From NCBI GenBank assembly GCA_001949185.1, contig BDGG01000001.1, positions 1,360,263 to 1,424,262 of the forward strand: a stretch of 64,000 nucleotides of DNA. The letters run 5' to 3'. A program made the position numbers and the translations under genes. This DNA comes from Ramazzottius varieornatus. Its lineage: Eukaryota > Animalia > Tardigrada. The notes under the pieces are model-generated. The model made no database searches. It was not told the DNA's origin and saw nothing but the letters and a program-made list of their open reading frames with translations. The stretch's first letter is position 1; every line of letters begins with the position of its first letter. Below, one piece after another: positions 15,738 to 62,766 of this stretch.

Positions 15738-15947
15738 CTGTACTCCCGCGATACACACGCCATACTCGTACGTACGTCAGGAATGTGCACCTCCCGGGGG
15801 CAGAAAATTAGAACTTTATTGAATCAATAATCAGTCGAAAAGCTGTACTCTAAAGAGGAATCTTCCGCCACTTCGTCACTTTTTTACTTGCAGTACTACT
15901 TTTCCTAATACAGAGGGAAGTATGGCGTGTGTATCGCGGGAGTACAG
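15738..15947. mobile_element. 210-bp MITE, Tc1/pogo-type (TA TSD)
   Basis: 29-bp TIR CTGTACTCCCGCGATACACACGCCATACT, with TA on both sides. Confidence 0.75.
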
Positions 15948-33034: not shown

Positions 33035-33466
33035 ATGGCCTATGTTGAAAGATTGAGTCTTATCTTCGTAGTAGTGTTAATTTTTCGCTCCGGATATACG
33101 GCGAAGCCATTGCGTTCAGCGCAAACTGTGGATGGCGACGATGACGACAACGACTTCCTTCTCGAGAAGGCGGACGATTATCCCGATGAGGCTTCTGCAT
33201 CAGATGGGACGAAGTGCGCGAATCGACTAGCTATCGGTGGTACAGGAGGTAAAGCAATCGGGGGAAGGAAAGGTGAACCAGGAAGCAGTACCGACGCAGA
33301 GGGTGGGGAAGGCGGACCCGCATTCAACAACGTGGGATGTGGAGCAGACGGCGGCGCTGGGGGCAAAGCTTTAGTCAAAGACAACGGGGCAAGATCCCGG
33401 GGAGGCTTGGGTGGGGGTGCCATCACTGCATACATGCAACAATTCGTTGTGCAGAGAATGAATTGA
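33035..33466 (+). CDS. Secreted Gly-rich GGxGG-repeat protein, paralogue 1 (143 aa)
   Basis: Signal peptide, acidic spacer (DGDDDDNDF), then C...GGTGGKA...GGEGGPAFNNVGC...GGAGGKA...GGLGGGA. Single exon. Confidence 0.8.
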   Translation: MAYVERLSLIFVVVLIFRSGYTAKPLRSAQTVDGDDDDNDFLLEKADDYPDEASASDGTKCANRLAIGGTGGKAIGGRKGEPGSSTDAEGGEGGPAFNNVGCGADGGAGGKALVKDNGARSRGGLGGGAITAYMQQFVVQRMN

Positions 33467-33854
33467 AAAGCGAAGATTAGGTTGTTTTTAGTGCAGCATG
33501 ATTCTGATTTAAAGGTGCGTTAGTTTTCGGTGCTTTTTCGCCTGTTTCATTAGCTTACTTGATAGCTAGATGCAACACAGGTAATTATACAGGTGCTGCC
33601 TTTGACATAACAAAAATGGTGGAGAACCGTTATGGTTCTGTATTGATTAGATCCACGTCATCGTGTACTTCCTGTCGACTAACGGCTGTCTGCTGGCCAT
33701 ACGACAGCAGGATGGCCATCATGTAGTGAGACTGGTTTGACCAGCGAAGTACGATGGTCGCTGAAAAAAGCCTTCAGATATGTATAAGATCATTTCCGCG
33801 GACTCACTCAATTCGAAGCGCAGTCAATATGCAGCTAGTCAGTCTTGTGTTGTA

Positions 33855-34144
33855 CGAGGGAAAGGTTGTAAAGTTAGCCGTCTAAGTTCGCCTGTTCTCT
33901 ACTACTCAATCCCAAACTTTTAAAAATAGATCGACAGATAAGATAATGAGCTGTCGAATGGTAATAGGCACAGTCAACACGAGAAGTCAGAGAATCCAAG
34001 AGATCCGCAATTAAAAGAACGTTGAAATCTCATGTTAAAAACCCAAGACTGACAATCAGATAGTCGATCAAGCGATAGACGCCACAGGCGTGGCTAACTT
34101 TACAAACCCGGTATGGGGTGGCTAAGTTTACAACCTTTACCTCG
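33855..34144. mobile_element. Mariner-like MITE, copy B (inverted relative to copy A)
   Basis: TA|CGAGGGAAAGGTTGTAAA ... TTTACAACCTTTACCTCG|TA. Confidence 0.85.
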
Positions 34145-34456
34145 TACGGCAAACGTGGACCGCCCCTGTAAGTGTAGCAAGAAATCGAGAATTGTTCGAC
34201 CGTCAGAGCGCTACCGCTTGACATACTTGTTACAAAGACTGTAAATGTATTACTGTAAAAATTCGCTGTGTTCGCCGAGGGCGGATAGTATACTTAGATC
34301 ATCCCCGTCGATGGTTGAGATTTGTCCCTCAACCACCCGGTGAACATTTCCAGCAAGCATACGTACTGTGGTGAACTTTTACAGTAGTTGGTTTTTCCAT
34401 ATACCTGGTACTGGTTTTCAGCTTCGGTGGAAAATAACCTCCATCAATTAAACTAA

Positions 34457-36809
34457 CGAGGGGATTATGCCTGTCCCCACCTCTTTTTAGTCAAACTGTC
34501 CTGGCGGAACGAGAGAGGAGAGTCTCTTCTAGGATCTGAGCCAGTGAGCTAAATCCCGCGTCGATCCTGGAACAAACTACAGGGACTCGGAAGTGACGTC
34601 AGAAATTTATGCCAATTACGTAGAAACGTGATGTCTTGTAGGTCCACGTTAGACCTAACAAACAAACCCTGAAACCCATCAGTAAACAAACTTGTTACGG
34701 CAAATAGATAGTACAGAAATGATGAGCGTCATAAAAGTGATGGAAGCAAAGACGGGCCTTGCACCACCCGCAAACCAGAAGAACAATGTCTCTGCAGTTC
34801 TCGTGAAGACAACTGCCTTTCAGCTTATCAAACATAAACTTGGCTGGATTAACATACATGAAACGTTCGTCGGTATATCCCGACTTACGCCAAGCTTCAG
34901 CTATCAAATTTTCGAACCTGGGCGACCGAAACTGTTGATACAGCACAGTGCAATCTCAAAATCACATCGCGATGATGCACTTGAACGGGTAAATCGTGCA
35001 AAAAGACAAAGTCGGATATCTTCTTGAAGCAGCCTTTGTACATCCTAAAGCATAACACATCCAGCGGTTGAATTTGACCGGTAACCTTCGGAGGGATGGT
35101 CAGCATTTCATACTCCAGCTCTTCCGGTTTCAGTTCAATCACAGAATCTTGATCGGTGAAGGTCTTCCACGAGTCGGCCAAGCACCGCTCTTCCATATGA
35201 GGGAAAAGAAATTTTTCTGACCACTCTAAGTAGAGCTTCTTGGTCATCTTCCCGGATTTCGAAGCAGTGACATACAGATTATCAGCCTTGAACATCGTTC
35301 TCGACACGATCGGACCAAACACTCCTTTCTCTTCCTTCAGCGTTAGGAAAAGAACAAGAAGAAACTTACGCCTGCCCGGGGAGACCGCCATCATCACAGT
35401 ATAGCTATGTGTCATGGAATTCTCCGACTGGGTGATCGCTTCCACGTGTTTTGCTCAAGCAGTTTCCAAAGTTCTTCTTGGTCTCATCTCATATTCAAAG
35501 CCTGACTGATCCGCATTCCACAGACAGTCTAACCCGTACTGTGCGATCCTTGATCTGACAAGCGCAACGCAGGCTTCAGCACTTTCCTTGACGAGAGGCG
35601 CTTCTTGTATGGATTTTTTGGTGACGAACTTGGTTATTTTCCGGTCAACGATCCCATAATATCTAGAAAATATTAATTTCGTTTTTGAAGGAAATCGAAG
35701 CACAAAAAACTGTTGGTACCGTTTGAGTTTCCGATCCAGTCTGGGGAAGCAGTGAAACCGGCCAATTTCACCGCTTCGTTCGCAGTGAGAGCCCATCGAC
35801 GTAATCCAAATCCTTGACCACTTGCTTTTTCCTTTTAGCGAGGAAGAACTGCTTACCGACATCCAAACGTAGAGCCTTCAACTTGTCCAGCCTGGAACCG
35901 CCTTCCACTACCTGCTTTTCCCAGTCGTACAGCTGCCGTATGCTGGTTACTTTACCAAAACTTCTCTGAACAGTGGCCAACGTGAGACGCTTCTTCTTCA
36001 CGGCGTTTCTCCAGTATGTAACCGCACGTTTCTTGTATTCCAAGTTGACTACCTGATCCACTGGAAGCTTGGGGTTAGGAAATCGTGGGATGTATAGCTC
36101 ATGGGAAGAAGGTTCTGTTCCGCTGGAAACAGGCTCAAGCAGTCTATCAGGTTCCGTAACGTCGAAGTCAGCTTCACTCCGGCCATTCAGCAGGTTGCAC
36201 TGGACAACAGATGCTTCGTAATCTTCAAATGACTCGAAGCGGATCTGCAGATCATACTGGAGGTCTTCTTCAACGGCATACACAGGAGTAACACTTTGGG
36301 TGATCTTCGAGTCGATGAAATCTAGGAAAGATTACGAATCAAATTAGTATCTTTTTTGTTTTTGAGCTCCAGTGCACAGCAAGATTACCTTTAACTATGT
36401 CCTTGAACTGCCTGTCAGCTTCGCTTGGAAAGTCGTCGATACGGTAGTGCAGTTTGTAGTCCCATTCCAGCAGCTTGATAACATTCAGCAAGTTGATGGA
36501 TTCCATTTCAGAGAAGCGCAGGAATGAATGAGCAAATGAGAGAAGGTTGAAAAACAACAGAAAACTTGATGAGCAGGAAGCACAGGCTCAATCAACAACC
36601 GAATCAACCATCGAACAATCAAGTCTTGATTGTTCATTGCTCTGCTTATATACCGCCCTACTTTTGACGTCACTCCCGAGTCCCTGTAGTTTGTTCCAGG
36701 ATCGACGCGGGATTTAGCTCACTGGCTCAGATCCTAGAAGAGACTCTCCTCTCTCGTTCCACCAGGACAGTTTGACCAAAAAGAGGTGGGGACAGGCATA
36801 ATCCCCTCG
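34457..36809 (-). mobile_element. Tc4/Tc5-like (pogo-related) DNA transposon, 2353 bp, ~145-bp TIRs, TAA duplication in a CTAAG site
   Basis: C-TAA|CGAGGGGATTATGCC...TGACGTCA and the mirror ...CCCCTCG|TAA-G. Encloses a DDE_1-type transposase. Confidence 0.85.
34695..36506 (-). pseudogene. DD37D transposase (HTH + CENP-B-like HTH + DDE_1 + C-terminal Cys/His knuckle), frameshifted
   Basis: LWNADQSGF, LADSW and IQPLDV, with 37 residues between D2 and D3. C-terminal CLHENC...VCGWCKARLCFHHFY. Split over several frames and includes introns. Confidence 0.85.
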
Positions 36810-37104
36810 TAAGTCCGAGCGTAACCAGGTGAACGAGCCGAGGTTAGATACATGTAGAGCAACAACCATCGAGGTCTCATGCGCAACGCTTGCCTGTATA
36901 ATAAGTGGGTCACATGGGCGATAGATGTTTCTCCGATCGCGATCGCAATTTCCGACACAACAAACCGATTTTGACACCTGTCTGAAATCATGTTAGGATG
37001 ATCGGCCTATAAGAGCTCGTAACTGTCAGATAATGTATGCCAATCGGATATACCTCTATCGTACTTCGAACTGCAATCCTGTTAGATTGAGTTTTTTTCT
37101 GAAA

Positions 37105-37527
37105 ATGGTGTCTCGGTCTCATCTGGTGGCTGTCGCTGCCGTTTTGGTGACGGTCCTCATATCCGGCTGCGAGTCGAGGGCGATTCGCGTCAGACGGGCA
37201 GCGGCTGATGACTCTTACTCTGACAGCTCTAACGACCTGAACATCGGCCCACGTAACCGCAACCGTGGAGCCACCGGGATAGGAGGCAGGAACTGTGGTA
37301 ACGCACAGACGTACGGAGGCGCTGGTGGTAACTCCAAAGGAGGAAACAACCCTCAGAATACTGGTATTCGAAATTCTGCAGGAGGAAGAGGTGGTGTGGC
37401 TATCAACGATACCGGCTGCGGAGCGAAGGGCGGCAGCGGTGGTTCCTCTATCGGGGGGCGTGGAGGCGACAGTCGAGGCGGAGCAGGTGGCCTAGCCCTT
37501 GTGACTGACTACGCGTTTGGGCGTTAG
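37105..37527 (+). CDS. Secreted Gly-rich GGxGG-repeat protein, paralogue 2 (140 aa)
   Basis: Signal MVSRSHLVAVAAVLVTVLISGCES, furin site RVRR, acidic spacer, then C...GGAGGNS...GGRGGVAINDTGC...GGSGGSS...GGAGGLA, ending FGR. Confidence 0.8.
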   Translation: MVSRSHLVAVAAVLVTVLISGCESRAIRVRRAAADDSYSDSSNDLNIGPRNRNRGATGIGGRNCGNAQTYGGAGGNSKGGNNPQNTGIRNSAGGRGGVAINDTGCGAKGGSGGSSIGGRGGDSRGGAGGLALVTDYAFGR

Positions 37528-38199: not shown

Positions 38200-40384
38200 G
38201 CAATCAGCTGTTTACCTCGTAAACCAACTAGCCTGGTTTACCTTCGCTGTGTGGTTTCTCCTGGTACATCCACTGTACACACTCGTTGCATTGCCTGTTT
38301 GTGTGACCACGCGCCGATGGCCTCCCGAAACGTGGACTGCCATATCGCCAGTCAGTTCAGTGTTCAGTTCTTCTTACAAGGGAATAGCGCCAACCATTAA
38401 ATTCCGATGCTCGAACCGATATTGCAGGAAGACGGAAGAGAGTTTGCTCTACAGCCTGAGCTATCCTACTCCTATACTAATATAACCCGAAAGAAACTTC
38501 TGACAAGGTCGTGGACCGTCTAAAAAGAAATTTTTAAACAAAAATCGCAGCAACATATTCTCGACCCGCTCGGATGGGCCACAATCAACGCGTTGGGCCA
38601 CAATCAAGCAATCAACTCGTTGCACAGTAAAAAGTACATAGGGTGTAGTTCATTTGCATGTCACGTGACTGCGCAGAACTTTGGAGGTAATACAGTAAAT
38701 CCGAATACGCTATTTTTCGAAAATATGGAGATTAAGTTGCCACTCCCGTTCACTTTGCAACTGTCCATCACTGAAGATGAGGTCCTACAAGCAGCTTGGA
38801 TTCGAAGAAGTCGAATGGACCCTTCAAAGTTACTGTGGCTTTGCTGCACCGCACAGGTAGTGCACTCTTGCCGTCACATACAAAACTATTTAACCTCTGT
38901 TGTAGCGCCGGATATTTTCCCGACTGCTGGAAAACCCAGTATGTCACCCCATTCCAAAGACCACTAAAGACCCAACGTCAGCTTCTTCATGGCGACCCAT
39001 TTCCATGTTGCATCCTCTTTCCAAATGTTTTGAAAAAATAATCGGTAAGCGATTGCGAAACTTTTTGGAAGATAGAAACGCATTTGGCACTAGTCAGTTC
39101 GGATTTCGAGAGAGCCATTCAACAGAGCTAGCAAGTTTGCTGATTAGTCAGTACTGGGCAGATGTGTTACACAGTAAAGGGGAAATCGATGCGGTGTTTC
39201 TTGATTGCACAAAGGCTTTTGATCGTGTCGATCATAAAGTGATTCTGCAGAAACTTGAGCGACTTCAGGTGCCTCTTCAGTGCAGAAGATTACTCGACCG
39301 CTATCTGTCGAACCGAAAATAGGTGGTAGTTGTGAATGGTAAGTCGTCGGGTTATCTGCCAGTTACTAGTGGAGTACCTCAGGGCTCCGTTCTTGGTCCA
39401 ATTTTGTTCATTGCTCTGATGTCGGACATAAATACCATTGTATCACCTGGCACCTGTCTTAGTCTTCTCGCATACGATATTCTAGTATCCCGTCCTCAAG
39501 AAACTGCCGTTGACTGCGTTACTCTCCAAACAGATCTGAACAGCATCTCCGCCTTGGGCAGATCCAATCAGCTCACCTTCAACCCTACAAAGTCCTCTCA
39601 CCTTCGCCTAAGCCGACGAAGAAGTCCAGGAAGTGCTGAATACCAACTGGACGGAGTCGTCGTGCCTACTGTATCCACCGTCAAGTACTTGGGTCTTCAC
39701 ATTGATGGCCGACTAAACTGGACAGCACACTGGTCTGCAAAATTTGCAACAGCTCGAAAACGCATCCGTTACCTGAATTCTCTATTCAAGTACCGTAACT
39801 CGGCGGCTCGTATCAAGCTGTTCGATGCTCTGGTGCAGTCTCTTTTCGACTACTGTCCATCTGTGGTGTGGTCGCTACTGGTAGGTACCGTCAGAGAGAT
39901 CGAAAAATGCGCCGGTAAGTTTCTCCGCACCGTTCGCCTTGGTGTCAGTTCTAGCTGGCCAGACCATGAGCTCTACCAGCATAACGCTTCCGAAGTTGGG
40001 TGGAATAGTCAGCTGATTTGTCGGGTGAACCTTTCTTTATCACTTGTATATAAATTTGTTGTTGGCTCTGTGCCGTTGGGCTTTTGTCTATTTCAGCCAT
40101 TAGAAATACGGGAAGAAGATGGTCCCTCGACCTCGACGCGAAGTTTGGACCGAATACGTGCTCATCCCTGTCCCATCCAACCCACTGGGTCTTTTCTGAA
40201 TGGTCGCAAGATACCCACCAGTCCTGATTCCTTCGTCGGGATCATGTGCAACTTGTGGAATGCACTAGATTTTCCAGCTGCTGCTTTTGAGAATAAATGG
40301 AACTTTGACCTTGCTTTGAAATCTGTTGACTGGAAGTCCTTTTCGTTGCTAAATCGTCTGTTTCCCTCGGAACTACTATATTGA
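38200..40384 (+). mobile_element. Decayed non-LTR retrotransposon (LINE) reverse transcriptase
   Basis: WRPIS, QFGFR, FLDCTKAFDRVDH, SGVPQGSVLGP, the catalytic motif degenerated to LAYD, KYLG. In-frame TAG at 39320-39322 and upstream frameshifts. 5' boundary approximate. Confidence 0.9.
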
Positions 40385-44911: not shown

Positions 44912-45384
44912 ATGGATCTCTCTCGAGGTTTCTTTTTTTTATCGGTTGGGCTGGCCGTGGTGATGGTATTTACTGTCAGAAGCGAGGCCAAACTGCTGCA
45001 GAAGCTCCTGGATAATGCGAGAGCTGGAAGTGAGGACGGACTCGAAGATTCAGGCAATAGCCGAGCTGTGGAGCAACTGGACAGAAGCTTGTGGATAGGG
45101 GATATGGGGGCGGATTGCCAAGCGGATCACCGAGCGGGCGCAAAAGGTGTCCTAACAGCAAAGCAGCGGTAGCAGGCTCTGGTGGAGATGCCATAGGTGG
45201 AAATCTGCCTACCGGCACACTCCGCAATGCCGCGGGCGGAAGTGGCGGGTTTTCTGGAAATAACGTTGGTTGCAAATCTGTGGGTGGTGATGGTGGTGAT
45301 GCTGCTGCCGGTTCCGGAGGAAATGCAAAAGGAGGAGATGGGGGGGACGCGCTAACCTTTGGCAATTTTCCTCTTCCTGGCTGA
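44912..45384 (+). pseudogene. Secreted Gly-rich GGxGG-repeat protein, paralogue 3, with one frameshift in the spacer
   Basis: The signal and spacer ORF starts at 44912. The Gly domain (RKRCPN...AGSGGDA...GGSGGFSGNNVGC...GGDGGDA...GGDGGDA...PG stop) is in a different frame, open only after TAG 45058-45060. No plausible intron. Confidence 0.7.
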
Positions 45385-45534
45385 ACTTAACGCAGATCCC
45401 ATCCCATGTGATCTTCAGTGTAGCTTAGATGTAGGTCACATCGCGTGTCGCTATAGTGGATTACCATAGTTCTCGGCTCGCTGTGTAGTCCGCAAAGAGC
45501 GTCTTCTTGTCCCACACCTTATCAACATTGAATA

Positions 45535-50274: not shown

Positions 50275-51448
50275 ATGTTATGGTCTTCTGCTTTCGTCAT
50301 CTGTCTAATGGCTGCGCCAACTGGTGCTCAAAATCTGCTACGATGCACATACCGGGAAAACGATCGTTCCACAACGTGCCGGGGTGGAACCTGGCCTGCT
50401 GAGGGCGAGACTTCGAACATCGGTGCCGAAACAACCAAGCTGGGATTATGGGATATCGCTTTCCAGAAAGATAATGTCGCCGCTATTCCTAGCTTACCTA
50501 ACCTGGAGAAGCTAAGCATAGCGGATTCCAACTGGCAAGCGGGGGAAGAGACAGTGAAGCTGCCCTTCAAGGAGCTGACTCGAAATGCTAACCGGCCGGC
50601 GTTGTTAGAGCTGGGAATTGAGAGCGACACCTTTAACTCTGCGGTACGGCAGTCTTGTTGAACAAGAATTCGCAGACTTTACGTCTCTGAGAAAACTAGT
50701 GATACAAAACAACACTCTGTCAGGGATTCAGGCGAAGGCCTTCGGGGAAAAAGTGGGTTCTTGCGAGAACCTTCCTGCTGTTTTGGAAATGTGCTTGACT
50801 GGGAATCGGGGAATGAACAAGCTTCGACTGGAAAACTTGGCAGCCGCTATCCTGCAGGCTTTGGGCAAAGGGAATGGCTCGGCTTACATAACACTCTAAA
50901 TCGATATCCTAGTTCGAGGTTTGGCAGTGTTACAATATAACTCATTCACAATTTTATTGGCCGGTATGCTAGTCAGGATTTCCATCATCATGACGAGGTA
51001 TTAATATAAACTGAGGCTCAAACCAAAACGTCAGGCTGTTTTCTTGTAGACACGAAGAGGTCAAGAAAACGGAGAGCTGACAGAAGTGAGGTATGACGGT
51101 TCTCCTGTGGAATTCAAAAGACTCGCGACCGTCGATTTCAGCGACAATGAAAAGCCAAAGCCGTTGAGCAAAGCTGTAGTCGACACAATCCAAGATCCAG
51201 AAAATCCTACCGATACCGTGATCTGGAGTCATCACTTTCGCTGTCATAGCTGCAACCAGGAGTTTCTGGATCCTTTAGTGAGCTGGACCAGAGCCGGTGC
51301 ACGACCTACGTCCAGATTTCTACGTCTATCATGCAACATTGCCGATAATAGCCAAAGCAACGAAATTCAAGGAGGAACTGCATTTTGGAGAAATTTTGGT
51401 GGCCAGATTTGCAGAGGTAAGATCAGCACGTTAATGGGAAAAGCATGA
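50275..51448 (+). pseudogene. Secreted leucine-rich-repeat protein, apparently frameshifted
   Basis: Signal MLWSSAFVICLMAAPTGA. LRR motifs LPNLEKLSIADS, FTSLRKLVIQNNTLSGI and LATVDFSDN, plus an LRRCT-like FRCHSC..W..C. Frame changes near 50630. Confidence 0.6.
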
Positions 51449-51479
51449 CCGCTCTGCGACCCCTTTTGCACTACAAAGT

Positions 51480-53273
51480 GCTTTCGTGCAGTTGCGCCGG
51501 AAGTGACAGCGCCATCTGCCTTAGCAAGCATATCCAGCACGCCGAACAGCAGTCCGAACAGCCTATACTCAATGGAGAAGGACAAGAGACCAAGCCGACT
51601 TTCAACGTTGGAAGGAGCTGGAAGCAGTGAAGAAGAGGCTCATCTTGGCTGACAAGTACCGTAAGCTATGAGGTATCGCCTTTTCGTCTCGCAGGAATCC
51701 CACGGCTGTATAGAAGTTTCTGAAGAAGAACTCAGCATCCGCGTCGATCCCTCCAATACCCATTCCAGGCAGCGACGATAAGTATCTCATCGAGCCGCAA
51801 GACAAAGCCAACTTCATCAGCGACCTCTTTGCCAAAGAGTACGTATCCTGTCCAAGCCATTGCACTGCCCAGGTCTCGCAGCGCCAGCCTTTGCAGATCC
51901 TTCAAGAACCGCAGTGCGAGCAGCCAACAGTAGCAACGTCCACCGTACACATACTGATACGGAAGCTCGACCCGAACAAGGCAGCAGGCTCATCGCTCGT
52001 CACCAACCGGCTCCTGAAGATTGCCGGTACTACCATCATCTATCCCTTGTCGCGCCTCTTCAACCTCATCCTGTCTACAGGAAAGTACCCCGCTGCCTGG
52101 AAAACCGCCGACGTCGTACCTGTGCCAGAGAAAGGCGGATCAACATTCCGACCAATCTCGCTCCTCCCTCCCCTGTCAAAGCTGTTTGAAACAGTTTTGA
52201 GTGATCATATAGACTCTTTCCTTGACAGGAACAAGCTGCTGTCCGACACCCAGTACGGATTTAGGAGGCGCAGGTCGACGGAGATGCAATTATTGCAAAG
52301 TGAAGTCTCCCGTCTCCCGTCAAGCAAAGTGAAGTCTCCCGTCTTTCAGTATGCCGATGACATCCTGTTGTACCGCATCATTCGAAAGAACGATGACTGC
52401 GCAGCTCTACAGCAAGATGTGAACGGCATTGCGGAGTGGTGCATCGAGACCGGCCTTGAAGTAAACCCCAGCAAGTCGCAGCATCTTCGGATCTCCAACA
52501 AGCGAACCAGCAACGCAAAGACAGACGGTGGAAATCACAATTTCTCTTCTGTAATTATTCCGTCTGTTACAGAAGCAGAATGCCTCGGAGCCATCTTCTC
52601 CAGCAAACTCGACTGGACAGCCCAGGTCGACAAAGTCACGGCAAAGTGCAGGAGAAGACTCTGCGCAATCAAGGGCTTCTTTCCTCGACGATTCGGCTCC
52701 GTCAAGCAGCTGCTCTTCAACAGCCTGGTTCGTTCGGTTATGGACTATGCTTGCTCCTGCTGGCATTCCACGTCAAAGACACTGCAAAGACAGCTGGAGA
52801 CCATCCGGAAGAAGTTTCTCCAGAGTATCCGGCTTGGTTCGCTCTTGAATGATGGACATGATCGTGATTTCAAGCAGTACCGATCACACCTGTCAGTAGT
52901 GGACTGGGAGCCTGTCTGGGAGCGGCGCTGCAAAGGCATTTTGCTGAATGCCTTTAAGATATGGGCTGGTGTATTTACAGGTGGCAACAGCATTCTCAAG
53001 TAGGAGCGATGGAAGGACAGCTCGATTACAAGAAGTCAAGCCAAAGAAATGGTCCTGTCGCCGGTCTCTACAGCTCCACCTTCGTGCAGGATGCTAGAGT
53101 CCACGCTGGGGTCCTTCGCTTACGTGGCCACTGCCTTGACGAAAGATCCTTTGTTTAGTCCTAACCTGAGCCAGTTGTTGTCAGTAGAAGCCTTTAAATC
53201 CTACCTGACAAACATACGTCTTTCTAGATTTGAATGGAGCAAAGAGAATATCGATCCTTTTTTGTTGGTTTAA
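51480..53273 (+). mobile_element. Decayed LINE RT with an in-frame internal deletion
   Basis: KAAGS, WKTADVVPVPEKG, FRPISLL, QYGFR..RST, then directly QYADD. The DxxKAFD and GVPQGS motifs are missing. Stops at the 5' end and at 53001-53003. Confidence 0.9.
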
Positions 53274-53744
53274 AACTGGTAGTATTTTATATTGTTTGAA
53301 ATCACTTTATCCCTGTCTCTTCCGGCTCTCTAGCCAAATATTTCTCAAATTTGTCATACTTACGCTTTGCCTGGCTAGCTCTCTGACAATAAGGGTATAT
53401 ATATATAGTCAAATCGTCAGTTTTAAGATCGGGTTAGTTAACATCCCCTATCCAGAAATAAGCTGCGGTTTAGGCAACAGAGACGGAGTATTTTCTGCTT
53501 TTCGGTTCGTCCTAGCTCCTACGTTCGCGGGGGGCTTCTAACGACTGAGACGAAGGTAGCACGGATCTGAGTGGTAGTTTTACTTTGGCAGCACTCGAGG
53601 TTCTCGTAACATCCACGAGGAAGTTCTCAAACTGACAAACTAGAATGACAGACGGAGCTAACGCGCTGTCCAATGGAAATCTAGCTGAAAAGCAGAACAG
53701 GCAGGGAGTCCCCAAACGGACAGAGAGAACAGCGACACTACTGT

Positions 53745-56439
53745 CTACAGATGTCCTTCCTCCTCGTCGATGTACGGTACGGGAGAATCCCTTGCCTTAC
53801 TGGTAGAGGCTCCAGCCCCATATCGATCATAGTCACTTGTCGAGCTTGCTTTCCGATAGTACGTCAGACGCTTGCTGAAAGCTCCAAGAAGGTCTTCGAC
53901 ACTGATGTGAACCGCCGGGTTCTTCACGCAGTGTGGATGATAAGTGTTTATCCAGCCTGCGAAACCAAAACAGTTAGGGAGTCCCCAAAGCACCGTCAGA
54001 ACTATCCACAAGTATGTGTTCAGGAAGCGTACCCGTGATATCGATGACGGTATCACGGCCTAGAGCGGCCTGCAGCCCGAAGTTCCGGCCGGTGCAAATG
54101 GCCATGGCGGTATTGTGGCTACCGAACAGGAGAAGTGCGAGGTCGACCGCATCAAGCATCAGATTGGATCGGAGTTGCTTCTTGAAGACGGAGAAACGAG
54201 CCGTCAAGACCCACCGCAAGCTACCCGGATACATTTCTTCCTTTCCATATCCCGGATTCTCCATGCTGTTCTTCACACGTTGCAGCAGGTTCTTTTGAAG
54301 AGGCGTGAGACCACCTAAAGATGAACATTTTTATTTTGTGTGATGCAGATGGACTAAAATTTATTGAAGGCGTTGCTTACTGGAAGGTGATCGAGCATTC
54401 CTTCCAGCCGGACTCGAGGAAACTTTCAGCTTTAAAACAGGGTGGGAGTTCCCATATCCGTCCGAGCTGCGGCTCCCCAGTAGTGAACTGGAGCCGGCGG
54501 CTGAAACCAATACATTATCAAAACGGGTTATAATGGGTTACCAGCAAGTTAAGGCCGGCTCTGACCTGGTGTCTTAGGCAGTTTCACTGCAATATCCCTG
54601 CAGTACCTGAAGGCACCAGTTCCTTTCCACGGCTTCAGGCACTCTGGCTTTGGGAACGCTGGGTTCGATCCTCGTAAACATGTGGGTATTTTCCTGACAC
54701 TGGAACTAGGTTAGCATGGACAAATTACAATACAATTTGAAATGGGATACGGAACGGTACTTGAAGCCAGCGGATCCAGAGTACTGTTGAGTGGAGTTCC
54801 ATCTGCTGTAGAAACTTCGAATGATGGCTGTATTGTCCGATGTGAAAGTCTCAACATACCATTCGAGTTTCTTGATTTGGTCGAGAGAGAGTTCCCATCT
54901 AAAGTCTGTCGCTGCCCATGCGACGATGCTATCGCATGAGGAGAGAGAGACTCCGTGGGTTTCGACGAGCCTGCGAAAATACTGCTGGTACGGATGTTAA
55001 ATACAGACAGAAAGTTGAGCGTACCATGTACTGGAGACTTCCGATCACTTTCAGCTTCTTCATCATCTTCATCGCTCCAGACGACTCCCTGGCGCGGACG
55101 TCTGCGTTGCTTCGGATAGCTGGGTCTGGAAGCAGGTCGGCCACCAGGTTCATCTGAAAAAACATTGCACTTAGAAAACTGTCGTCAACGGAAGTTTTGC
55201 GCTTACCGCGCAAGGCCAAACTTCTCGGCTTTTCCAGAAGGGAATTCCCGTTTTGCGCTGATCGATCATTACGATGCGGGCTCGCCACTGGGACAGAAAC
55301 AGAATTTTTAAAAAAAATAGACAATCGAAATTCGGTGAAATTTCCAAGGTGAAACTGAAATACCTCGTCCGTTGTCTTCGGTGTCCTCGCTCCAGTCAAT
55401 CCTGGGACGCGGTGGTTTTTCTGGTGACGACTCAGGCGTGATGGAGAACCGTTCACGAAGACCTGAAAAGGAATACGGATAAAATCCTTCGGATTTGCTG
55501 GCTGTGACGTCACTATGTGGGTTAGCTGTGGTGCGTAGAAGCATCCACGAGCAACATGGCGTCATCCAGACGTTTCATCTGAATGATGCACTGACGTCAT
55601 AACTTTCCTTCGCAGCGAAAAACACACTTGTGACGTCATGCGGGTAGTGAGGGTCCGTACCTGTCAATCGGCGCCCAGTAAAAGGATCAAACTTCCATTG
55701 TCCTCCATTAGACGTGAAGCGAGAGGCAGGTGAGGCTTCACGATGTCTGTCGCGTCCTTGTCCGGTGCTGCAACTTGACAGCGGCGTTGGTATGATCGGT
55801 TGATCCGGTATTGACTGTCTCGCTATGGCGGAGTTTTCCTCACCGAGACTCGAATCGTTGTCCTGCGTCATAGGCAAATCCAGCTGCTGTGATTCTTCGG
55901 GAAGATAGTTTTCAGGAGAAGCTTCACGATCAGCTGTAGACTTTGGGCCGTCCAAGTCAGCGAACAGGCCATTCACAAAGCTCTGTTCTTTCTCCTGGTG
56001 GGAAGGGGAAAGCCGTTCGCAAGCTTTCTTTCGAGATCTTCCCTGCAAATGGAATACGGAAAATTTCTGCGGAAAACTCTGCAGGTTCAAACAGACTGGG
56101 AGTTCCCAACCCGTTTTTGCGGCCAGCCTCATATGTTACAGTATAACACAATAATAACAAAAACTGGATCAAAACACATCAAAGTTGATCTGTACGTACG
56201 ATGGCCCTCTCTTCTAGTTGTTTAACTAGACCATCGGCAGACTTTCGCACAGACGTGACCATTCGGATTCCGGCTCTGGACCATTGTTGAAGTTGGTCCA
56301 TATTGAAGGGATGCTGGACGATGATGAAATCACCAACTTGAAGATTCTCACCGTAAACAGCACGATTATCAAGCTTCCATTTCTGGCCCGCTTTCTGGCC
56401 CGCCATGTTTAGCATCATGCATCTCTGGTCGAAAAACAT
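53745..56439 (-). CDS. Unresolved minus-strand multi-exon orphan coding segments inside the motif island
   Basis: Several protein-like ORFs (53745-54276, 54929-55150, 55575-56040, 56179-56439) with splice-like boundaries. No family recognised and some stops are present. Confidence 0.35.
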
Positions 56440-57836
56440 GATGACGATGTAATCTGCCGAAACAATAAGCTTCCTGTAAGAACATCATGAATCAATGAAA
56501 AATGTAAGACTGGGAATTCCCGACCCGTTCATCAGCCAAGCTGCATACAACTTACGTTTGCTGTGAGCTTTCTGCAGACGCTGCTTTTCTGGATCTTCTT
56601 CAGACTCCGCCATGTCTTTGACAGTGCGTTTTCGGGTCGATCGACCTGAAAAGGGGAAGAATAAACCGGCAAAGCTAGGCTAGAAAGTCTTGGTGCACCC
56701 TCAGTGGTGAGCAGTACCCGTTGTTTTGGAGGCTTCTTCAGGTAGCTCAGCGTCCTCTTCTTCCACGGAGTTGTTCCTCGTTTGTCGTCTGGCTGCCATC
56801 CTGGCTTTTTACACGTATTCCGCAAAACCTACCAAAGCAAAGGAGCAGTCAAATGAAGGAAGAGTATGGGATCACTAAAGAGAAATCAGTGATTCAGTCT
56901 GGTCATTACGACCGTGTGGGAGTTCCCGTCCAGAATAACCCAGCGCTGCGGCCTATCCGTTTGTGTTCCGGAGGGTGTAATATCCGGGTTTTCGGAAACT
57001 CAACGATGGTTCCCCGTAACGATGTAAGTTTCGGGTTTCCGGCCCCAGTTGATCAATTGATTTTGTAATACGCTCAGCGTGTCTTTGCAAAGTATCAATC
57101 AACTGGATAGCTCGACTGTCTGTTAACGCTGCGTTTTCATTCCAGTACTCAAACTGACTAGCAGTTGTGCCACAACCCTGCTTTATAGTTGCGCAGTTGG
57201 GATTCAGCTTCCGGTTGAGACTTTTCTCCGTAGTTTTGCTCGTTTCGGCCTAGAATGTTTAAGCCAAGAAAGCGAAGAAGGGTTTACAGCGTATGTACGC
57301 CTTCGACTAGAGTCAGGAGCCGTGGATTACTACGTTACTTACCACGGCGTAATGAGGTAAGATCATCTGTTCGTAGCGGGACTGTGGGAATTCCCTTGAC
57401 TGTTGATTGAGAATCGCCTTGATCATTTTTGTTTCAGAATGTGGAAGACATTCGCAGGAACGAAGAAACTGCCAGCCATCCGAGCACGTCCGAAGATGAA
57501 GGAGAAAGTAACGAGCAGGTGTGCGAGGAGGGACTGGGCGCGGATAGGGAGTTCCCAGAATTTCTTTCGAAAGTGTGCGCAGACCTACCGAAAATTAATT
57601 GTTTCTGTCGATGATCTATTGCGTCCTCTTGTGATTGTGTTGGCAAACGATTTTATTCATGCCGAATTCGCGATGATTCCACCCTCGCTTCAGACTATCA
57701 TGTAAAACGGATCATGTAAGACAAAATACGAAAGAACGAAAGACATTATTCGTACGCGAAGTAAAACGGGTAGGGAGTTCCCACTTCAAAAACTGCGGAA
57801 AGAAACTTCAACGTAGTTCTCGTTAAGAGTAAGTAC

Positions 57837-58680
57837 CTCAACATCTACTTCGCCAAATACCACAGGAAAATTCGGTGCAGGGAGGCGGACTCCAACGGGC
57901 TCCGGTGCTTTGCGACCCCAGGAAAAAGTCGGACTGGCCAGCAAAGGAGCTTGTCGCTTCGGGCAGTAACAGGCGTGGCGGAGCCTCTGTTCGACCGACA
58001 GATCCTTCAGCAGGAGCAGGCATCGCTCACATCGCGGAGAGTTGCTCGTGACCTAGAGGAAATTATGTCTCACATGAAGTAATATATGAAAAGATATGAG
58101 TGACGCACCTCAACATCGTGCTGGCTGACGACATGGACATTGTAGTCCTTCCAGGAAATCTTTCCGGCAGTTGAGGGACACAAGTAGCAGGCCAACTGGA
58201 TGGGAGAAGGAAGAAGACGAGTCACAGGACTTCTAAAAACAACAGAAGGACCTTGATACTTTGTTGGACTAATGTTTGACCGCATTGATGCTTACCTCCC
58301 TTTTTCTGTTCGAAGAGTGATACGGAGGCTGTCCAAGATCTTTCGGCTGTGGAACTCACTGCCGAGAGCACCTCCGTCAACTGGAAAGATGAGCTTGGTG
58401 AAGAAGGGAGTTCCCAATGCGAGGCAGGTGGCCTTGATCACCTGTAAACAAGACCACGTTTCGAAAGAAGTTCTGATGGCGAAGAATGCCGGAACTGTTT
58501 TTCACGGTAAAAGTATCGGGGTGAGCTTACCTCAATATTCCCTCCATCACGGTGGAAAAAGGGTCGAAGGATGGCTTCAACGTACTGCATGGCTTCCTTA
58601 CATTCTACTGTATCGATTCCACAAGACGACAAGAGATGGGCAGGTCGGACGCAGTCGACCGGAAGAGCGAAGGCAGCCAC
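57837..58680 (-). CDS. Spliced zinc-finger gene segment (C2H2 finger + UBZ4-like CCHC finger), ends not resolved
   Basis: Four exons join in frame through GT-AG introns: ...DGGNIE|VIKATC...EKG|RSPV...CYLCPSTAGKISWKDYNVHVVSQHDVE|VTSNSPRCERCLLLLKDLSVEQRLRHACYC... Confidence 0.6.
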
Positions 58681-59038
58681 GAGGGCAGGACGGGCTCCAA
58701 AGAAGGCAAGGAAGCTGGTGAAACGCCGGATTTTCTCGAGACCAGCGCTTTTCGGCCATCACTCTATGGAGGGTCCTTCCTGCATCGTCAACATTCACTT
58801 CGCTATAAGAGAGAACATTTAAAATAACCGAATATTCCGCGAGAATTAGTTGAGAGCTGAACAAATGAACGTACAAAATCGTTATCTCAAGTGGCGCACG
58901 CTTTCGTTATTAATGGTTGAAGCGTGCGCCACTCATGATACGACACCTACTCTGCACGGTTCCAAACAAGCTCGTCCAGCTCCTCTAGCAAATGGAAGGA
59001 CTCGAGGAACGAACACAGCAATCGGCGGCGACCAATCC

Positions 59039-60059
59039 CTACGGGAACAATTCCCAACAAGTGCTCCACACCTTGTCGGAACAAGCAGCTAAGGAGCGCT
59101 TTACGGAGGAGAAAGCCACTGACACCATCTGTAGAAGTGGAAGAGCTGACCATGACGACCTGCTTTGTAGATGTGGACGCGTTTGCGTAGACGCGTGCTT
59201 CCGTGCTGGTCGACGCGTGCTTCCGTGCTGGTCGACGCGTGCTTCCGTGCTGGTCGACGCGTCGGACGTTGGTGGTTGCTCAACCGGATAGGGAGTTCCC
59301 CGCCTAAGCGCAGCAACCTCGCGCAGTAACCGTCGGTTCTGACGCTGGACTTCTTCTCGTTCCGCAGTGACGGCTGCATATTGCGCCCGGGTTGCTTCCA
59401 GCCCACTATGAAGCAGCGTTAGCTGTCCAGTCAGGGCCGTGGCAGCCGATGTCCAGATGTCCATCGCGTCCACAGTGCCTTGGATGACAGCGGGACAGAG
59501 GTTGATGTTCCTCACTATTCTACTGCAATTACAGACGACACGTTAGAGCGAATTCCCAATGCCACGCAAAATATTCGGCAGAAAAAAGTAAAATTAAGAA
59601 AGCAGTTACGTGCACTTCGGGCATGGTTTGCCGTGGCGGATGACCATGCTGAGGCAGCCTCGGTGGAAGAAATTTCCACATCCCCCATCAGCAGCCAACT
59701 TCCCGCATAAGAACGAGTAGTCTCGGTGGATGACGAGCTCGGTGTCCATGGGAAGGTTCGGAACACCGGGGTACAGCTGGATGTCCAACAGGAGAGCGAG
59801 GCAGATCTGACATTCCATCTGCGGACTGTTGTTCTGCAAAAACAACACAAGAAAAATGTACGGCTCGGCGTATGCAGGCTCGTGAAACATGGGTACTTCT
59901 GGTCCGCAATAGCTGTACGCTGTAGTGTATGCAGGTACGTGAAACATGATCGCATTCTTGTTCGCCGATCTTCTGCAAAAAACCCCATTGAGCCAGACCA
60001 CTCACCGTCATCAATGCAGCAAGTTCGACCGCAGAGCGGTCAGAGAAGTCTTTGGACAT
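59039..60059 (-). CDS. RING finger + coiled-coil protein (TRAIP-like architecture), at least 3 exons
   Basis: Exon 1, 60059-60006, is MSKDFSDRSAVELAALMT followed by GTGAGT. Exon 2 from 59818 is CQIC...CGNFFHRGC...CPKC. A phase-2 intron leads into the heptad segment LEATRAQYAAVTAEREEVQRQNRRLLREVAALR. Confidence 0.65.
59190..59262. repeat. 22-bp tandem repeat, 3.3 copies, inside the RING gene ORF
   Basis: GACGCGTGCTTCCGTGCTGGTC at 59190, 59212 and 59234. Confidence 0.9.
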
Positions 60060-61213
60060 TTTCTGGGTGGGAGTTCCCTTACGGCTGTACCTGAAAACCG
60101 AGGGCAAATCGGCCGAGCTGTCTCAGGGAATTCGCTGTAAAATGCACTGAAGCGATTGCTGGAAGCTCTCACGCAAGGCTGCAACTACGTTTGATCCAAG
60201 ACTCCGAGATGGCTGATCACTTTACGAAGTTAGGTAGGAAGGTCCGTCGACAGTCCTAGCAGAAAGGCTAACGAGCCAATGCTCCAGTAAAGATCAAACA
60301 TGTCCGAAGAAAGAGTGAAGGATGCCAGAAACTTCAAAACAAAACTAGAGGTAGCTTGCGCTGTTCCGATAGAGTCGGACCCTGTGGCTTGCAGTGCGCA
60401 GTTTAAAATGCGCTCTTGGTGAGCAGTACAGAGTGTGGGCAGTGTCAACACGGAGAAATTTTATTTTCGTTTTCACCACAGCGAGTTGATTGGCATGGTT
60501 GATCAGTCGTTTTTGCTGTTTCTACTTCGCGCTACATTCTACTGACAGCTGGTTGCCGGTTTTAGTGAGTTCGTCGTTTTGTTACCTGTGCAAGTCGCAG
60601 CTGGCTCGAAGCTGAATAATGGATTTCAGGGTTTCTGGATAGGGATCGCAGTGACACTGTTGCTCATTTCGAACATGCACGGTTATCTTTCATATTCTAG
60701 TCCAAGGTCGTCGATTTATACATTCAAACGATTTGCGTGTCACTTATCGTGCGCCTCTTCCGTGAGGCTCGTTCAACTATTTCTTTCGCTCTAAATTATC
60801 ATTTCGTGAGGAACAAACCGACACACGAAATTCATGTAACCGGTCGAAAACTACCGAGTTGCCTACGTGGCCATCAATTTAATCTCCCGCGACAGCGCCA
60901 GATCAACAGAAAAATAATCGTAACCGACCACTGTTTTGTGGTTCATGGTTAAGTTTATGTGTCCACATAGGTCAGTGACCGAGGCTCATCACAGAAACCG
61001 GAGACGCTAATCACGGTAAGACTGACTGTAAGTTGACACCGGTGTAGAATCCTTGCCCGAGGTTACGAGCTGAATCAAGAAGCAGAAGAGCCCAAGAGCA
61101 GAAGATAATTTGAGAAACCTTCCTTTAGAAAGAAAAACGAAAGTTCAAGTGTACAGCTGTATAGTTCGAAGTTGACTTTGCGTCCTGTCACGTTGGTGAG
61201 TCTCATTCGCAAA

Positions 61214-62766
61214 ATGGTATTCCAAAACCGTTCGAGTTGGACCTGGATCCTTTTGTGGAGTACATTGTTATTACGGAACTTCCAGGAGCTCTGCGGCGCT
61301 CCATCAATAGGCACACCAGCTGACGAAGACTCAAGTTTCGATCTCGACAAGATAGCTGCCGCCTCGAACAGGGACTGTCAAGGACAAGAAGCTGTTGGAG
61401 GACCGGGAGGAGACGCGGAGGCTGGACCTGGCGGGAACGCTCACGGTGGCGCAGGCGGAAAGGCCAAGGCGGGATCTAACTGCGTCGGCATTGGTGGCAA
61501 AGGTGGCACTGCCATAGCCGGGAGGCCAGCTGGAGCCGACAAGGTTGGTGGAGAAGCCTATGGAGGTACGTCGTGGAAGAGACTGCCTCGATTTGCGGTT
61601 TGTGAATCAGTCGATTCTGACACAATCGTCTACTGTAATACGGAAGGAGTTCTTCAAAAGCATCATACATAGAAACAGTGTATGTTGGTTCATGTACTGT
61701 AAAACTGCGCTGCACCCGGCACAGTGCGTACGGGAAATTTCCCAGGTAATTCAGGGATAGACCCCCACGACCCACGGCGATAATTTATGTGTACTACAAC
61801 ACAGGCGGATGTAGCGAATTTCTGCAGTACTATTTTTGCCAGGTATGTTCATTCAATAAAAAAAACAGCTTGTAAGTAAACTCTCAATGCTTTGTAGGAA
61901 AAGGTGGAGACGGCCACGGGGGCGACTATGCCGTTGGCATTGGAGGGCCCGGGGGAGACGCCATTGGTGAACTGGGGTATGGTGGGGATGGTGGGGACGG
62001 TTATGGCGGGAAATGCGCTAAAGGCTATGGAGGAAAAGGAGGCCGTGGTAGCGCTGGGCGGGGGAAGGACGGTATGGGCCACCCCGGTACTATGGTAGGC
62101 TGCAAAAGGGCTGCCGGAAACAGAGATGCCACCGGGAACCCAGGTGAAACGGTGGACAAGACGGTGGATATGCAGCTTAACGCTCGTTTGGAACCAGGTG
62201 GTGGAATAGCGGACCTCGGCAATGTTACACTGCCCGCCATCACTAATCAAACCTTCAAAAGTGCGCCGAAAGCAGTAAGTCAACAGCCGGATGACTCGTC
62301 AATCAACACAGAAGACGGCAACCAAAAGAACGTAGCAGGAAACACGCAGAGCGAAGGGAATGTAACCTCCACAGAGAGTCAGAAGACGGCCAAACAAAAT
62401 GTTGATGTTTCTCTACAAAATAAGACTGAGGAGAGGAATGAAAGACAAAAGTTTCTTTCCACGTTGGACGAACATTCGCTCGGAACATTGCCAGAACCAG
62501 CAAAGCAACAAGAAGAAACCAGCGTTTCCCTGCTACCTATGACGACAACTCCAAGTAATTTAACAGTCGAAGCCAAACTGGGAGTCGATGGTACTTCGGC
62601 TCTCACCACAAGCACGAAGGACAGACACGAAATTTTCACGACTATAAGTGGGGATGGGGAAGTTAAGATTAGTGATGAGTCCCAAAAAGTTCAGTCAGCT
62701 ACTCCCAATACTGAAACCAGCACCGCCGTCGCAGTTACCACAAGCGTTACCACCAAGACAGTATAA
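61214..62766 (+). CDS. Secreted Gly-rich GGxGG-repeat protein, paralogue 4: extended repeat domain + Thr/Ser-rich tail, join(61214..61565,61898..62766), 406 aa
   Basis: Signal peptide, acidic spacer, then C..GGPGGDA..GGAGGKA..C..GGKGGTA. The phase-1 intron GTACGT(61566)...TTTGTAG(61897) joins in frame to four more GGxGG units, a second Cys pair and the 62074-62766 ORF. Confidence 0.8.

Follow-up and report, generated by a model that had tools for sequence, protein, structure and literature searches.

A non-autonomous EnSpm/CACTA-type transposon of Ramazzottius varieornatus with a dispersed decamer and a predicted BEN-fold protein that may bind it

The window, i.e., the whole stretch of 64,000 nucleotides of Ramazzottius varieornatus DNA that was analysed, contains a copy of a cut-and-paste transposon of the EnSpm/CACTA type (CMC), an assignment which is almost certain (Table 1). 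The two 13-bp terminal inverted repeats (TIRs) are the only perfect copies of their sequence in the window, and both are the element ends. The empty site is represented in public contigs (runs X1 and X9), which join position 53445 to 60678 with the target-site duplication (TSD) ATC present once; 21 of the 25 letters in between, read by eye, match 60648–60672. EnSpm/CMC elements are characterized by short TIRs, a TSD of 2–4 bp, a TIR start of the wider consensus C(A/C)C(A/T)(A/G), and a Tnp2/TnpD-type DDE transposase. The TIRs of this copy are short and perfect, begin with CCCTA in agreement with that consensus, and are bordered on both sides by a 3-bp TSD. The transposase of the family (P0006) is homologous to PF02992, with residues 1–74 only being present here. 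The preliminary description of this DNA had taken it for one unit, either a mobile element or a virus segment, of 6.4 kb with orphan genes and no TIRs, TSD or transposase. The mobile unit holds, and the virus segment is very unlikely: the element measures 7,199 bp, possesses both TIRs, the TSD and a 74-codon transposase stub, and carries spliced accessory genes for BEN-fold (predicted), zinc-finger-like and RING-like coiled-coil proteins.

The stub matches the N-terminus of RvY_19356, a 773-aa EnSpm/CACTA-type transposase. A tblastn search of the locus with P0006 returned the same 74 residues, and ~700 further codons are absent here. RvY_19356 aligns with a PF02992 (Transposase_21) protein at 27% identity over 541 columns (E 2e-47), and in the Atlas its score to Transposase_21 clusters is 0.96; a Pfam search of P0004 and P0006 gave no match. 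The protein keeps D259, D348, E618, C367/C370 and H594/H598, each common to 12 of 12 distant relatives, and we take the conserved D, D and E columns to be the catalytic triad. Related proteins come from five different R. varieornatus contigs, and further copies of the element exist in the species. No close relative was found in JGI metagenomes (alignment A2), and none of the transposase in viral contigs. The stub ends exactly at a copy of the decamer GGGAGTTCCC, where public contigs end as well (at 57547 and 57553). The rest of the transposase may have been lost by deletion between two motif copies of the same direction, with ~7 bp of microhomology.

The accessory genes are currently annotated as hypothetical proteins only. 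The RNA-defined exon chain of accessory gene 1 has one in-frame stop (54713–54711) in this copy. Public contigs differ from the locus by a 1-bp insertion at 54678, in the putative BEN gene, and by a 16-bp loss at 59722, in the RING-like gene. Pfam revealed no zinc-finger family match for gene 2, and the zf-RING_2 match of gene 3 (E 0.0023) lies below the Pfam cut-off. The protein P0002 joins gene 2 exons to the BEN-fold exons and could be either a deletion copy or the product of a predicted long intron. The family at this locus is apparently transcribed and polymorphic; runs X9 and X18 were taken as RNA by guess and from their spliced joints, none of the runs being registered as RNA. The depth, which is not valid as copy number, is mostly 56–144 over the element and 22 in the right flank.

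Table 1. Coordinates of the element, its genes and its motif copies in the window.
Feature	Position	Strand	Evidence or context
EnSpm/CMC-type DNA transposon copy, non-autonomous	53446..60644	.	TIRs, TSD, empty-site joint
TSD, left, ATC	53443..53445	+	
Left TIR, 13 bp	53446..53458	+	starts CCCTA
Right TIR, 13 bp	60632..60644	-	perfect match to left TIR
TSD, right, ATC	60645..60647	+	
Accessory gene 1, RvY_00490	53745..56799	-	conserved N-terminal domain, long low-complexity linker, C-terminal domain of predicted BEN fold
Two predicted BEN-fold exons of gene 1	53748..54314 (54033–54314, 53748–53956)	-	Atlas, model, structural matches
Transposase 5' stub, RvY_00491, 74 codons, intron 57357–57437	57255..57557	+	tblastn; GT..AG joint in run X18
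Accessory gene 2, spliced ORF, two CxxC...H/C zinc-finger-like motifs	57786..58590	-	splice joints; motifs by eye
Accessory gene 3, RING-like domain then coiled coil	59039..60059	-	joints 59523–59609, 59834–60005
Motif GGGAGTCCCC	53704..53713	+	3' of putative BEN gene stop
Motif GGGAGTCCCC	53977..53986	+	RNA-supported intron
Motif GGGAGTTCCC	54444..54453	+	exon of putative BEN gene
Motif GGGAATTCCC	55240..55249	.	RNA-supported intron
Motif GGGAGTTCCC	56098..56107	+	RNA-supported intron
Motif GGGAATTCCC	56512..56521	.	predicted intron
Motif GGGAGTTCCC	56918..56927	+	between divergent starts of putative BEN gene and transposase
Motif GGGAATTCCC	57386..57395	.	transposase intron
Motif GGGAGTTCCC	57547..57556	+	transposase cut-off point
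Motif GGGAGTTCCC	57773..57782	+	just beyond gene 2 stop
Motif GGGAGTTCCC	58406..58415	+	gene 2 coding exon
Motif GGGAGTTCCC	59291..59300	+	gene 3 coding exon
Motif GGGAGTTCCC	60069..60078	+	9 nt upstream of likely gene 3 start

The C-terminal domain of accessory gene 1 is predicted to adopt a BEN fold. Its two exons score 0.94 to BEN clusters in the Atlas (193 of 256 features), with 10 of the 10 best family matches falling in one family. In a model, the domain has a pLDDT of about 90; the pLDDT of a single-sequence prediction is 35. Among 48,161 chains, the four best structural matches are BANP, Bsg25A, NACC1 and BEND3, with VIA Z-scores of 6.8, 6.7, 6.6 and 6.2, which, like all those of the BEN matches, are below 8 and thus give moderate support. 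These alignments cover 88–95 residues with an rmsd of 2.9–4.4 Å and 8–13% identity. Rank 7 is also a BEN domain (Z 4.9), and the best non-BEN match has a Z of 5.1. The Atlas features and the structural evidence are in agreement. The Pfam BEN family (PF10523) is matched by neither P0001, P0002 nor 31 homologues, Foldseek found nothing in the PDB for the model at E ≤ 0.001, and sequence searches of the PDB returned nothing useful. The BEN-like protein has at least 23 relatives.

The decamer is present in the island in 11 exact copies, eight of GGGAGTTCCC and three of GGGAATTCCC, in line with the preliminary count. Copies with one mismatch lie at 53704 and 53977 (both GGGAGTCCCC), 54887, 59548, and 60126. 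Allowing one mismatch, 32 strand-matches were counted vs. 6.3 ± 2.65 in 100 shuffles, none of which reached 32, and the reported excess over chance is thereby borne out. As a look-elsewhere control, the commonest 10-mer in 19 overlapping 6.4-kb segments reached 3–4 copies vs. 8 in the island. The statement that the motif occurs nowhere else in the window holds for exact copies (none in the other 56.8 kb, five motif forms tested) and fails for one-mismatch copies, found at 15711 and 63439. All asymmetric copies share one orientation, as had been noticed, with GGGAACTCCC absent from the + strand (P = 0.008 for eight copies, 0.002 with the two GGGAGTCCCC). A satellite or tandem origin of the motif was rejected, the flanks being not repeated; to this part of the preliminary account it should be added that the flanks share a weak extra consensus. 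Of 32 positions tested, −6 is C (P 8e-5) and −4 is G (P 2e-4), each in 10 of 13 copies. The mirror positions on the right are weaker (6/13 and 7/13). The extended site is an imperfect palindrome of ~22 bp. The suggestion that the motif resembles the site of a dimeric protein holds.

A copy is met about every 450 bp, whether in an intron, a UTR or a coding exon. The spacing is more even than random (CV 0.46, P 0.0045 vs. random placement), a test on 13 sites picked after being seen, in a deleted copy. The good sites closest to the ends lie 258 bp and about 510–566 bp away, and no 7–10-mer is enriched in the terminal 400 bp as compared to 300 shuffles. The intron that holds the copy at 56512 is read through by two diverged homologues, P0031 (48% identity) and P0039 (31%). 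Both have a motif-compatible tetrapeptide there, with a chance of about 1.6% each, a post hoc observation at the peptide level only. Over all homologues, motif-compatible peptides number 4 vs. 2.5 expected.

Three candidate binders are encoded by the element itself: the BEN-like protein, the transposase and the zinc-finger-like protein. We consider it on balance probable, by analogy with plant VANC and TnpA, that the BEN-like protein recognises the motif and exerts control over the whole length of the element. As a dimer, it would occupy the copies every few hundred bases and control the chromatin of the element. A symmetric homodimer alone does not explain the single orientation of the motif, for which an asymmetric partner or preference of the dimer would account. 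The purpose would be element-wide self-regulation, most likely, as with VANC, by insulating the element from host silencing or by lifting it. Such an anti-silencing role seems somewhat more probable than a TnpA-like transposition scaffold, since the motif sites avoid the ends. The BEN-solo proteins of Drosophila are repressors and insulators; their homodimers recognise 10-bp palindromes centred on AATT, and a hetero-complex binds an asymmetric variant of the site (PMC4281564).

Comparison with known systems shows both likenesses and differences. Maize En/Spm and other plant CACTA elements are described as combining a Tnp2-type transposase and an accessory DNA-binding gene with 13-bp TIRs and a 3-bp TSD, as containing a ~10-bp motif that is repeated, and as giving rise to non-autonomous derivatives by deletion (PMC2613891); the tardigrade element resembles them in all of these, its DNA-binding gene being a candidate. 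In contrast to plant CACTA in the strict sense, its ends begin with CCCTA instead of CACTA, its motif is dispersed over the interior, exons included, rather than clustered in subterminal regions, and its accessory genes lie on the strand opposite to the transposase. TnpA, whose Arabidopsis motif has been reported, is a tandem HTH protein said to be restricted to flowering plants (bioRxiv 10.64898/2026.08.24.746577), whereas a BEN fold is predicted for that of the tardigrade element. Pfam found no TnpA-type tandem HTH on the exons scanned, and the predicted BEN-fold domain, the only one modelled, has a BEN domain as its best match. In Arabidopsis VANDAL transposons, the encoded accessory protein VANC is reported to bind a short internal motif and to act element-wide (PMC5735166), an anatomy to which that of the tardigrade element appears analogous. 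However, VANDALs are Mutator-like, whereas the present transposase is Transposase_21-like and the TSD is 3 bp; VANC motifs lie in non-coding tandem repeats, whereas those found here are single, evenly spaced, partly exonic and polar. VANC acts by removing DNA methylation; in two tardigrades, by contrast, DNMT2 alone is reported (PMC8821070).

The BEN-solo factors Insensitive, Elba1/Bsg25A and Elba2 of Drosophila, as well as BANP, NACC1 and BEND3, would share the predicted fold, and 10-bp AATT-centred palindromic or near-palindromic dimer sites (PMC4281564) resemble the tardigrade decamer. These factors are host genes with the site TCCAATTGGA, whereas the tardigrade protein is element-encoded and falls below the Pfam BEN threshold. 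In ticks, thrips and metagenomes, animal EnSpm elements (P0011, P0012, P0016, L001–L015) have a homologous transposase (21–33% identity). DUF4806/BEN genes may be linked to arthropod EnSpm elements. At the 15 distant loci, mostly short contigs, neither the decamer or a comparable dispersed motif (k-mer scan) nor a relative of the BEN-like gene (BEN and N-terminal profiles) was found. Pfam BEN was matched by none of the 59 ORFs scanned (70 listed) from 13 of the 15 loci, a scan that left out L003 and L012 (near-duplicates) and 11 repeat-derived ORFs. Several distant loci carry ordinary tandem arrays (7 of 15 scanned for repeats).

Binding of the motif by the transposase or by the zinc-finger-like protein, with the internal sites folding the element for excision or titrating the transposase, seems rather unlikely. 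Animal and fungal Spm transposases are reported to contain the DNA-binding domain as a rule, and a transposase can itself regulate cognate copies (bioRxiv 10.64898/2026.08.24.746577). Motif and TIR have CCC in common, a few flanks resemble the TIR when inspected by eye, and a monomeric zinc-finger reader would explain the polarity. However, the half-site flanks match the TIR at 72 of 260 positions vs. 65.2 ± 7.2 for random element DNA (P 0.19), and good sites keep away from the ends. The zinc-finger-like motifs lack family support, and the predicted BEN-fold protein appears to be a better candidate than the Zn-finger proteins proposed earlier for binding assays. It is improbable that the element gathered sites for a transcription factor of the host, of which the most plausible would be NFAT, a Rel-homology protein, and not NF-kB, and is switched on by stress or in the germline. 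The decamer does fit the kappaB consensus, and NFAT can bind kappaB-like sites; however, the NFAT core is GGAAA, which the commonest form of the motif lacks. Enhancer use predicts neither even spacing through coding exons nor the −6/−4 consensus, and a predicted sequence-specific binder is already among the products of the element. Eutardigrades are reported to retain NFAT-type Rel-homology proteins; among eight tardigrades, R. varieornatus included, NF-kB was reported as not found, R. varieornatus having an NFAT-like protein only (PMC7056985). The likeness to the Rel/NF-kappaB consensus, pointed out in the preliminary description, is therefore probably a coincidence.

Still less probable is that the copies are non-binding leftovers of recombination, repair or end fusion, or act in RNA. 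One copy lies exactly at the transposase break, and a single orientation fits a polar process. Yet duplication does not explain copies with unrepeated flanks, orientation follows the element while its genes run both ways, and exact copies persist within coding exons. A relic of TIR–TIR junctions was not supported by the TIR-likeness test above. That the island is a segment of an endogenous virus, with the decamers as signals for packaging or an immune response, is scarcely credible. RING plus coiled coil is a common combination in large DNA viruses. BEN domains are known from bracoviruses and poxviruses too (PMC5704228). However, the TIRs, the 3-bp TSD, the transposase and the short spliceosomal introns all speak against a virus, and no relative was found in viral contigs or, for the BEN model, among predicted viral structures (Foldseek, E ≤ 0.001).

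Transposon-encoded sequence-specific self-regulators are established in plants, namely VANC (PMC5735166) and TnpA (bioRxiv 10.64898/2026.08.24.746577). In the open literature, i.e., outside subscription papers and Repbase, no description was found of an EnSpm/CACTA element with a BEN protein or of CACTA in Ramazzottius; the Spm survey, covering 962 structures, could include BEN-type accessory proteins (bioRxiv 10.64898/2026.08.24.746577). Here, a candidate protein and a candidate site lie within the same 7 kb of an animal EnSpm element. Quite tentatively, this may be an animal transposon with its own chromatin control, in which a BEN factor and a polar lattice of 22-bp sites, spaced ~450 bp apart across introns, UTRs and coding exons, would shield the element from silencing, its host lacking DNA methylation. 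Deletions between these direct repeats would also give rise to non-autonomous copies. Such a system would be an animal counterpart of VANC that arose independently, and would provide new BEN transcription factors whose binding sites are already in place. If the pairing of BEN protein and motif fails, the locus still represents a well-defined, transcribed and apparently polymorphic EnSpm family. If it holds, it would exemplify chromatin control by a DNA transposon in a lineage from which DNMT1 and DNMT3 are reported to be missing, and supply a binding motif for an uncharacterised BEN branch. It would also suggest that transposons disperse BEN factors jointly with the sites of these factors.

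The island of kappaB-like decamers is an element that almost certainly belongs among the EnSpm/CMC transposons. The terminal inverted repeats and target-site duplication missing from the preliminary description are present: a perfect 13-bp inverted repeat starting with CCCTA lies at 53446-53458 and 60632-60644, with ATC on both sides, and the element is 7,199 bp long. Public contigs from 4 of the 24 listed sequencing runs were aligned to 51400-61600. Runs X1 and X9 each contain a contig jumping from 53445 to 60678 via 25 letters, which resemble 60648-60672 at 21 of 25 positions (by eye); these contigs represent an empty site, as a diverged allele or at a paralogous location. In several pieces the public contigs diverge from the window at ~1-2% of letters, as expected of a small young family. 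The BEN exon matches RvY_00490 of R. varieornatus at 100% identity; this match lies on a 9.33-Mb contig and another on a contig of 1.66 Mb. Two further proteins in the database match the N-terminal part at 95% and 89% identity. Transposase pieces occur on three further short contigs of 6.8, 4.1 and 3.7 kb, which carry RvY_19356, RvY_19376 and RvY_19388 and may belong to one or more copies.

A transposase, likewise not seen in the preliminary description, is present as a stub. Because contigs of X1 and X18 begin exactly at motif copy 57547, the exon preceding that copy was used for a search, and it retrieved RvY_19356, an intact 773-aa protein of which only residues 1-74 match the window. RvY_19356 itself has no direct Pfam match. 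PF02992 Transposase_21 is found in its relatives (27% identity over 541 columns, E 2e-47), and Atlas groups it with Transposase_21 at 0.96. It keeps D259, D348, E618, C367/C370 and H594/H598, in columns common to 12 of 12 distant relatives. The transposase relatives, together with the 13-bp TIRs and the 3-bp TSD, identify the island as an EnSpm/CMC element whose transposase is deleted in the window copy; that the island is a virus is hardly credible. The alignment to the intact transposase stops at 57557 (codons REFP) and the motif at 57556. Two contigs start at 57547, and a spliced X18 contig ends at 57553, as computed from contig size. Judging from these contig ends, REFP in intact copies probably coincides with a near-motif, a full motif follows past the transposase, and the intervening ~2 kb or more was lost here; an intact copy would measure ~9.5 kb. 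The loss would have arisen by deletion between two direct motif repeats with 7 bp of microhomology.

The motif cluster described earlier is present: from 54444 to 60078 there are eight copies of GGGAGTTCCC and three of GGGAATTCCC, and copies with a single mismatch lie at 53704, 53977, 54887, 59548 and 60126. At up to one mismatch there are 32 strand-matches vs. 6.3 in shuffles (none of 100 shuffles as high), and the most frequent other 10-mer reaches at most 4 copies across 19 windows of 6.4 kb. The claims of confinement and of single orientation also stand: the remaining 56.8 kb of the window has no exact copy, and GGGAACTCCC is absent on the plus strand (P 0.008 for all eight falling on the same strand). 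For further analysis, the 11 exact copies were combined with two GGGAGTCCCC to give 13 sites. C at -6 and G at -4 each occur in 10 of 13, and since this consensus is mirrored more weakly on the right (6/13 and 7/13), the site is a lopsided palindrome of ~22 bp.

Introns hold five of the 13 sites, four of these introns having RNA support; of the remaining sites, four are in UTR or intergenic sequence and four, with the junction copy included, are coding. The excess in introns falls short of significance (P 0.10). Gaps of 161-885 bp are evener than random (CV 0.46, P 0.0045, for sites picked post hoc). The outermost sites are 258 and 566 bp from the element ends, the terminal 400 bp contain no enriched repeat, and the likeness of motif flanks to the TIR is not above chance (P 0.19). 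The predicted genes of two diverged homologues continue across the intron of the 56512 copy, and there the peptides SGIP and RGIP fit the palindromic form of the motif, with a chance of ~1.6% each (indirect and post hoc, at the peptide level); over all homologues there is no overall excess of motif-compatible peptides (4 vs. 2.5 expected).

Contigs of X9 and X18, taken by guess as RNA runs, skip introns with canonical ends, and the joints are absent from the DNA run. Among the 15 joints shown, ten are CT..AC and one is GT..AG, and two more resolve to CT..AC. The genes are listed below with other features of the window. The small, apparently secreted proteins in the table form a dispersed cluster and may resemble polyproline-II glycine bundles.

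Genes and repeats of the element, and other features of the window
Feature	Position	Strand	Basis or remark
Gene 1 (predicted BEN fold, RvY_00490)	53745-56799	-	RNA-run joints
N-terminal domain of gene 1	56200-56473	-	Conserved in at least 6 homologues; no Pfam family
Transposase stub (RvY_00491), two exons	57255-57557	+	Matches RvY_19356
Gene 2	57786-58590	-	Two zinc-finger-like motifs, by eye
Short high-copy repeat in element intron	58868-58935		Large depth spike, many different flanks, all four runs
Gene 3	59039-60059	-	RING-like (Pfam E 0.0023, below cut-off), then coiled coil
Three tandem 22-bp repeats in gene 3	59187-59262		X1 contig 44 bp shorter here
LINE reverse-transcriptase fragment	39323-40384
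LINE reverse-transcriptase fragment	51714-about 53410		Ends ~35 bp left of EnSpm TIR; separate insertion
DDE_1 (pogo-like) transposon	34452-36814		153-bp TIRs 97% complementary; transposase broken
MITE-like sequence, ~300 bp	28030-28323; 33852-34146		Two inverted copies, 92-94% alike
Related fragments resembling receptor guanylate cyclase extracellular domains	553-1248; 28775-29932; about 43139		By eye; no Pfam match
Small, apparently secreted proteins	33014-33466; 36997-37527; about 44913-45386; 61109-61672; 61876-62766	+	GGxGGxA-type glycine repeats, paired cysteines; no Pfam match in the three members scanned

The C-terminal domain of RvY_00490 likely adopts a BEN fold, as judged from predicted structure. 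Residues 400-560 resemble BEN clusters in language-model features (0.94, 193/256) and, in predicted structure, BEND5 (TM 0.51-0.52). A full HMMER search gives 32 proteins at E ≤ 0.001 that share the C-terminal domain, the N-terminal domain or both, and Pfam BEN matches none of the 31 homologues scanned. For P0002, a near-identical protein, a model built from an alignment of 24 sequences has high confidence across the putative BEN domain. Foldseek with this model returned no match at E ≤ 0.001; a wide structural search placed BANP first (Z 6.8, rmsd 3.4, 95 aligned), followed by Bsg25A (Z 6.7, rmsd 2.9, 88 aligned), NACC1 (Z 6.6, rmsd 3.6, 91 aligned) and BEND3 (Z 6.2, rmsd 4.4, 93 aligned), with the first unrelated chain at Z 5.1, beneath these four BEN domains. 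The BEN exons are open and spliced in the window copy. Function is called into question by a stop at 54713-54711 in the RNA-defined exon chain of gene 1 and, in the public contigs, by an insertion of 1 bp at 54678 and the loss of 16 bp from the RING exon; no copy was seen with a full-length product.

The element belongs to the EnSpm/CMC superfamily and differs from plant CACTA elements in the strict sense, having neither a CACTA start nor a subterminal motif cluster; it is like VANC/VANDAL in layout, yet it is not a member. Among 15 distant metagenome EnSpm loci, most of them short, none has the decamer or a comparable dispersed motif, and none has a BEN-like gene. One of these loci, L011, holds ~15 kb between long inverted repeats (4172-19266), with tandem arrays and two transposases, one of EnSpm type and a nested one of hAT type. 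In arthropods, BEN-like DUF4806 genes are located close to EnSpm-type transposases, so a BEN cargo may be nothing new. A link between EnSpm and BEN is not described in the literature covered, including the accessible parts of PMC5704228 and PMC10789644, some key BEN papers being outside its scope. The evenly spread, polar, exon-entering motif is a feature for which no known match was found.

By analogy with the plant CACTA accessory protein, VANC and Drosophila BEN-solo proteins, the predicted BEN protein of the element is, by a modest preference, the candidate binder of the motif. Alongside a transposase, plant CACTA elements are reported to encode an accessory protein whose binding target is a repeated motif (PMC2613891; bioRxiv 10.64898/2026.08.24.746577), and BEN domains are described as a DNA-binding class (PMC11601247). 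Drosophila BEN-solo dimers, which act as repressors and insulators, bind 10-bp AATT-centred palindromes, and a hetero-complex binds an asymmetric variant (PMC4281564). A symmetric dimer leaves the single orientation unexplained, which suggests an asymmetric complex or polar oligomer. Binding by the transposase or the zinc-finger-like protein, both encoded in the element, is rather unlikely. It is improbable that host NFAT recognizes this kappaB-like site; PMC7056985 reports no NF-kB from the eight tardigrades covered, R. varieornatus among them. A motif devoid of binding function is more improbable still.

With the BEN protein as binder, element-wide chromatin control is somewhat more likely than pairing of the ends, because the sites fill the interior and not the ends. 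VANC binds motifs within VANDAL elements and thereby lifts silencing (PMC5735166). Tardigrades are reported to be without DNMT1 and DNMT3 (PMC8821070), so the silencing to be countered would be histone- or small-RNA-based. The RING-like protein could, speculatively, remove a host factor, and the BEN protein, bound to sites along the element, would counter such silencing.
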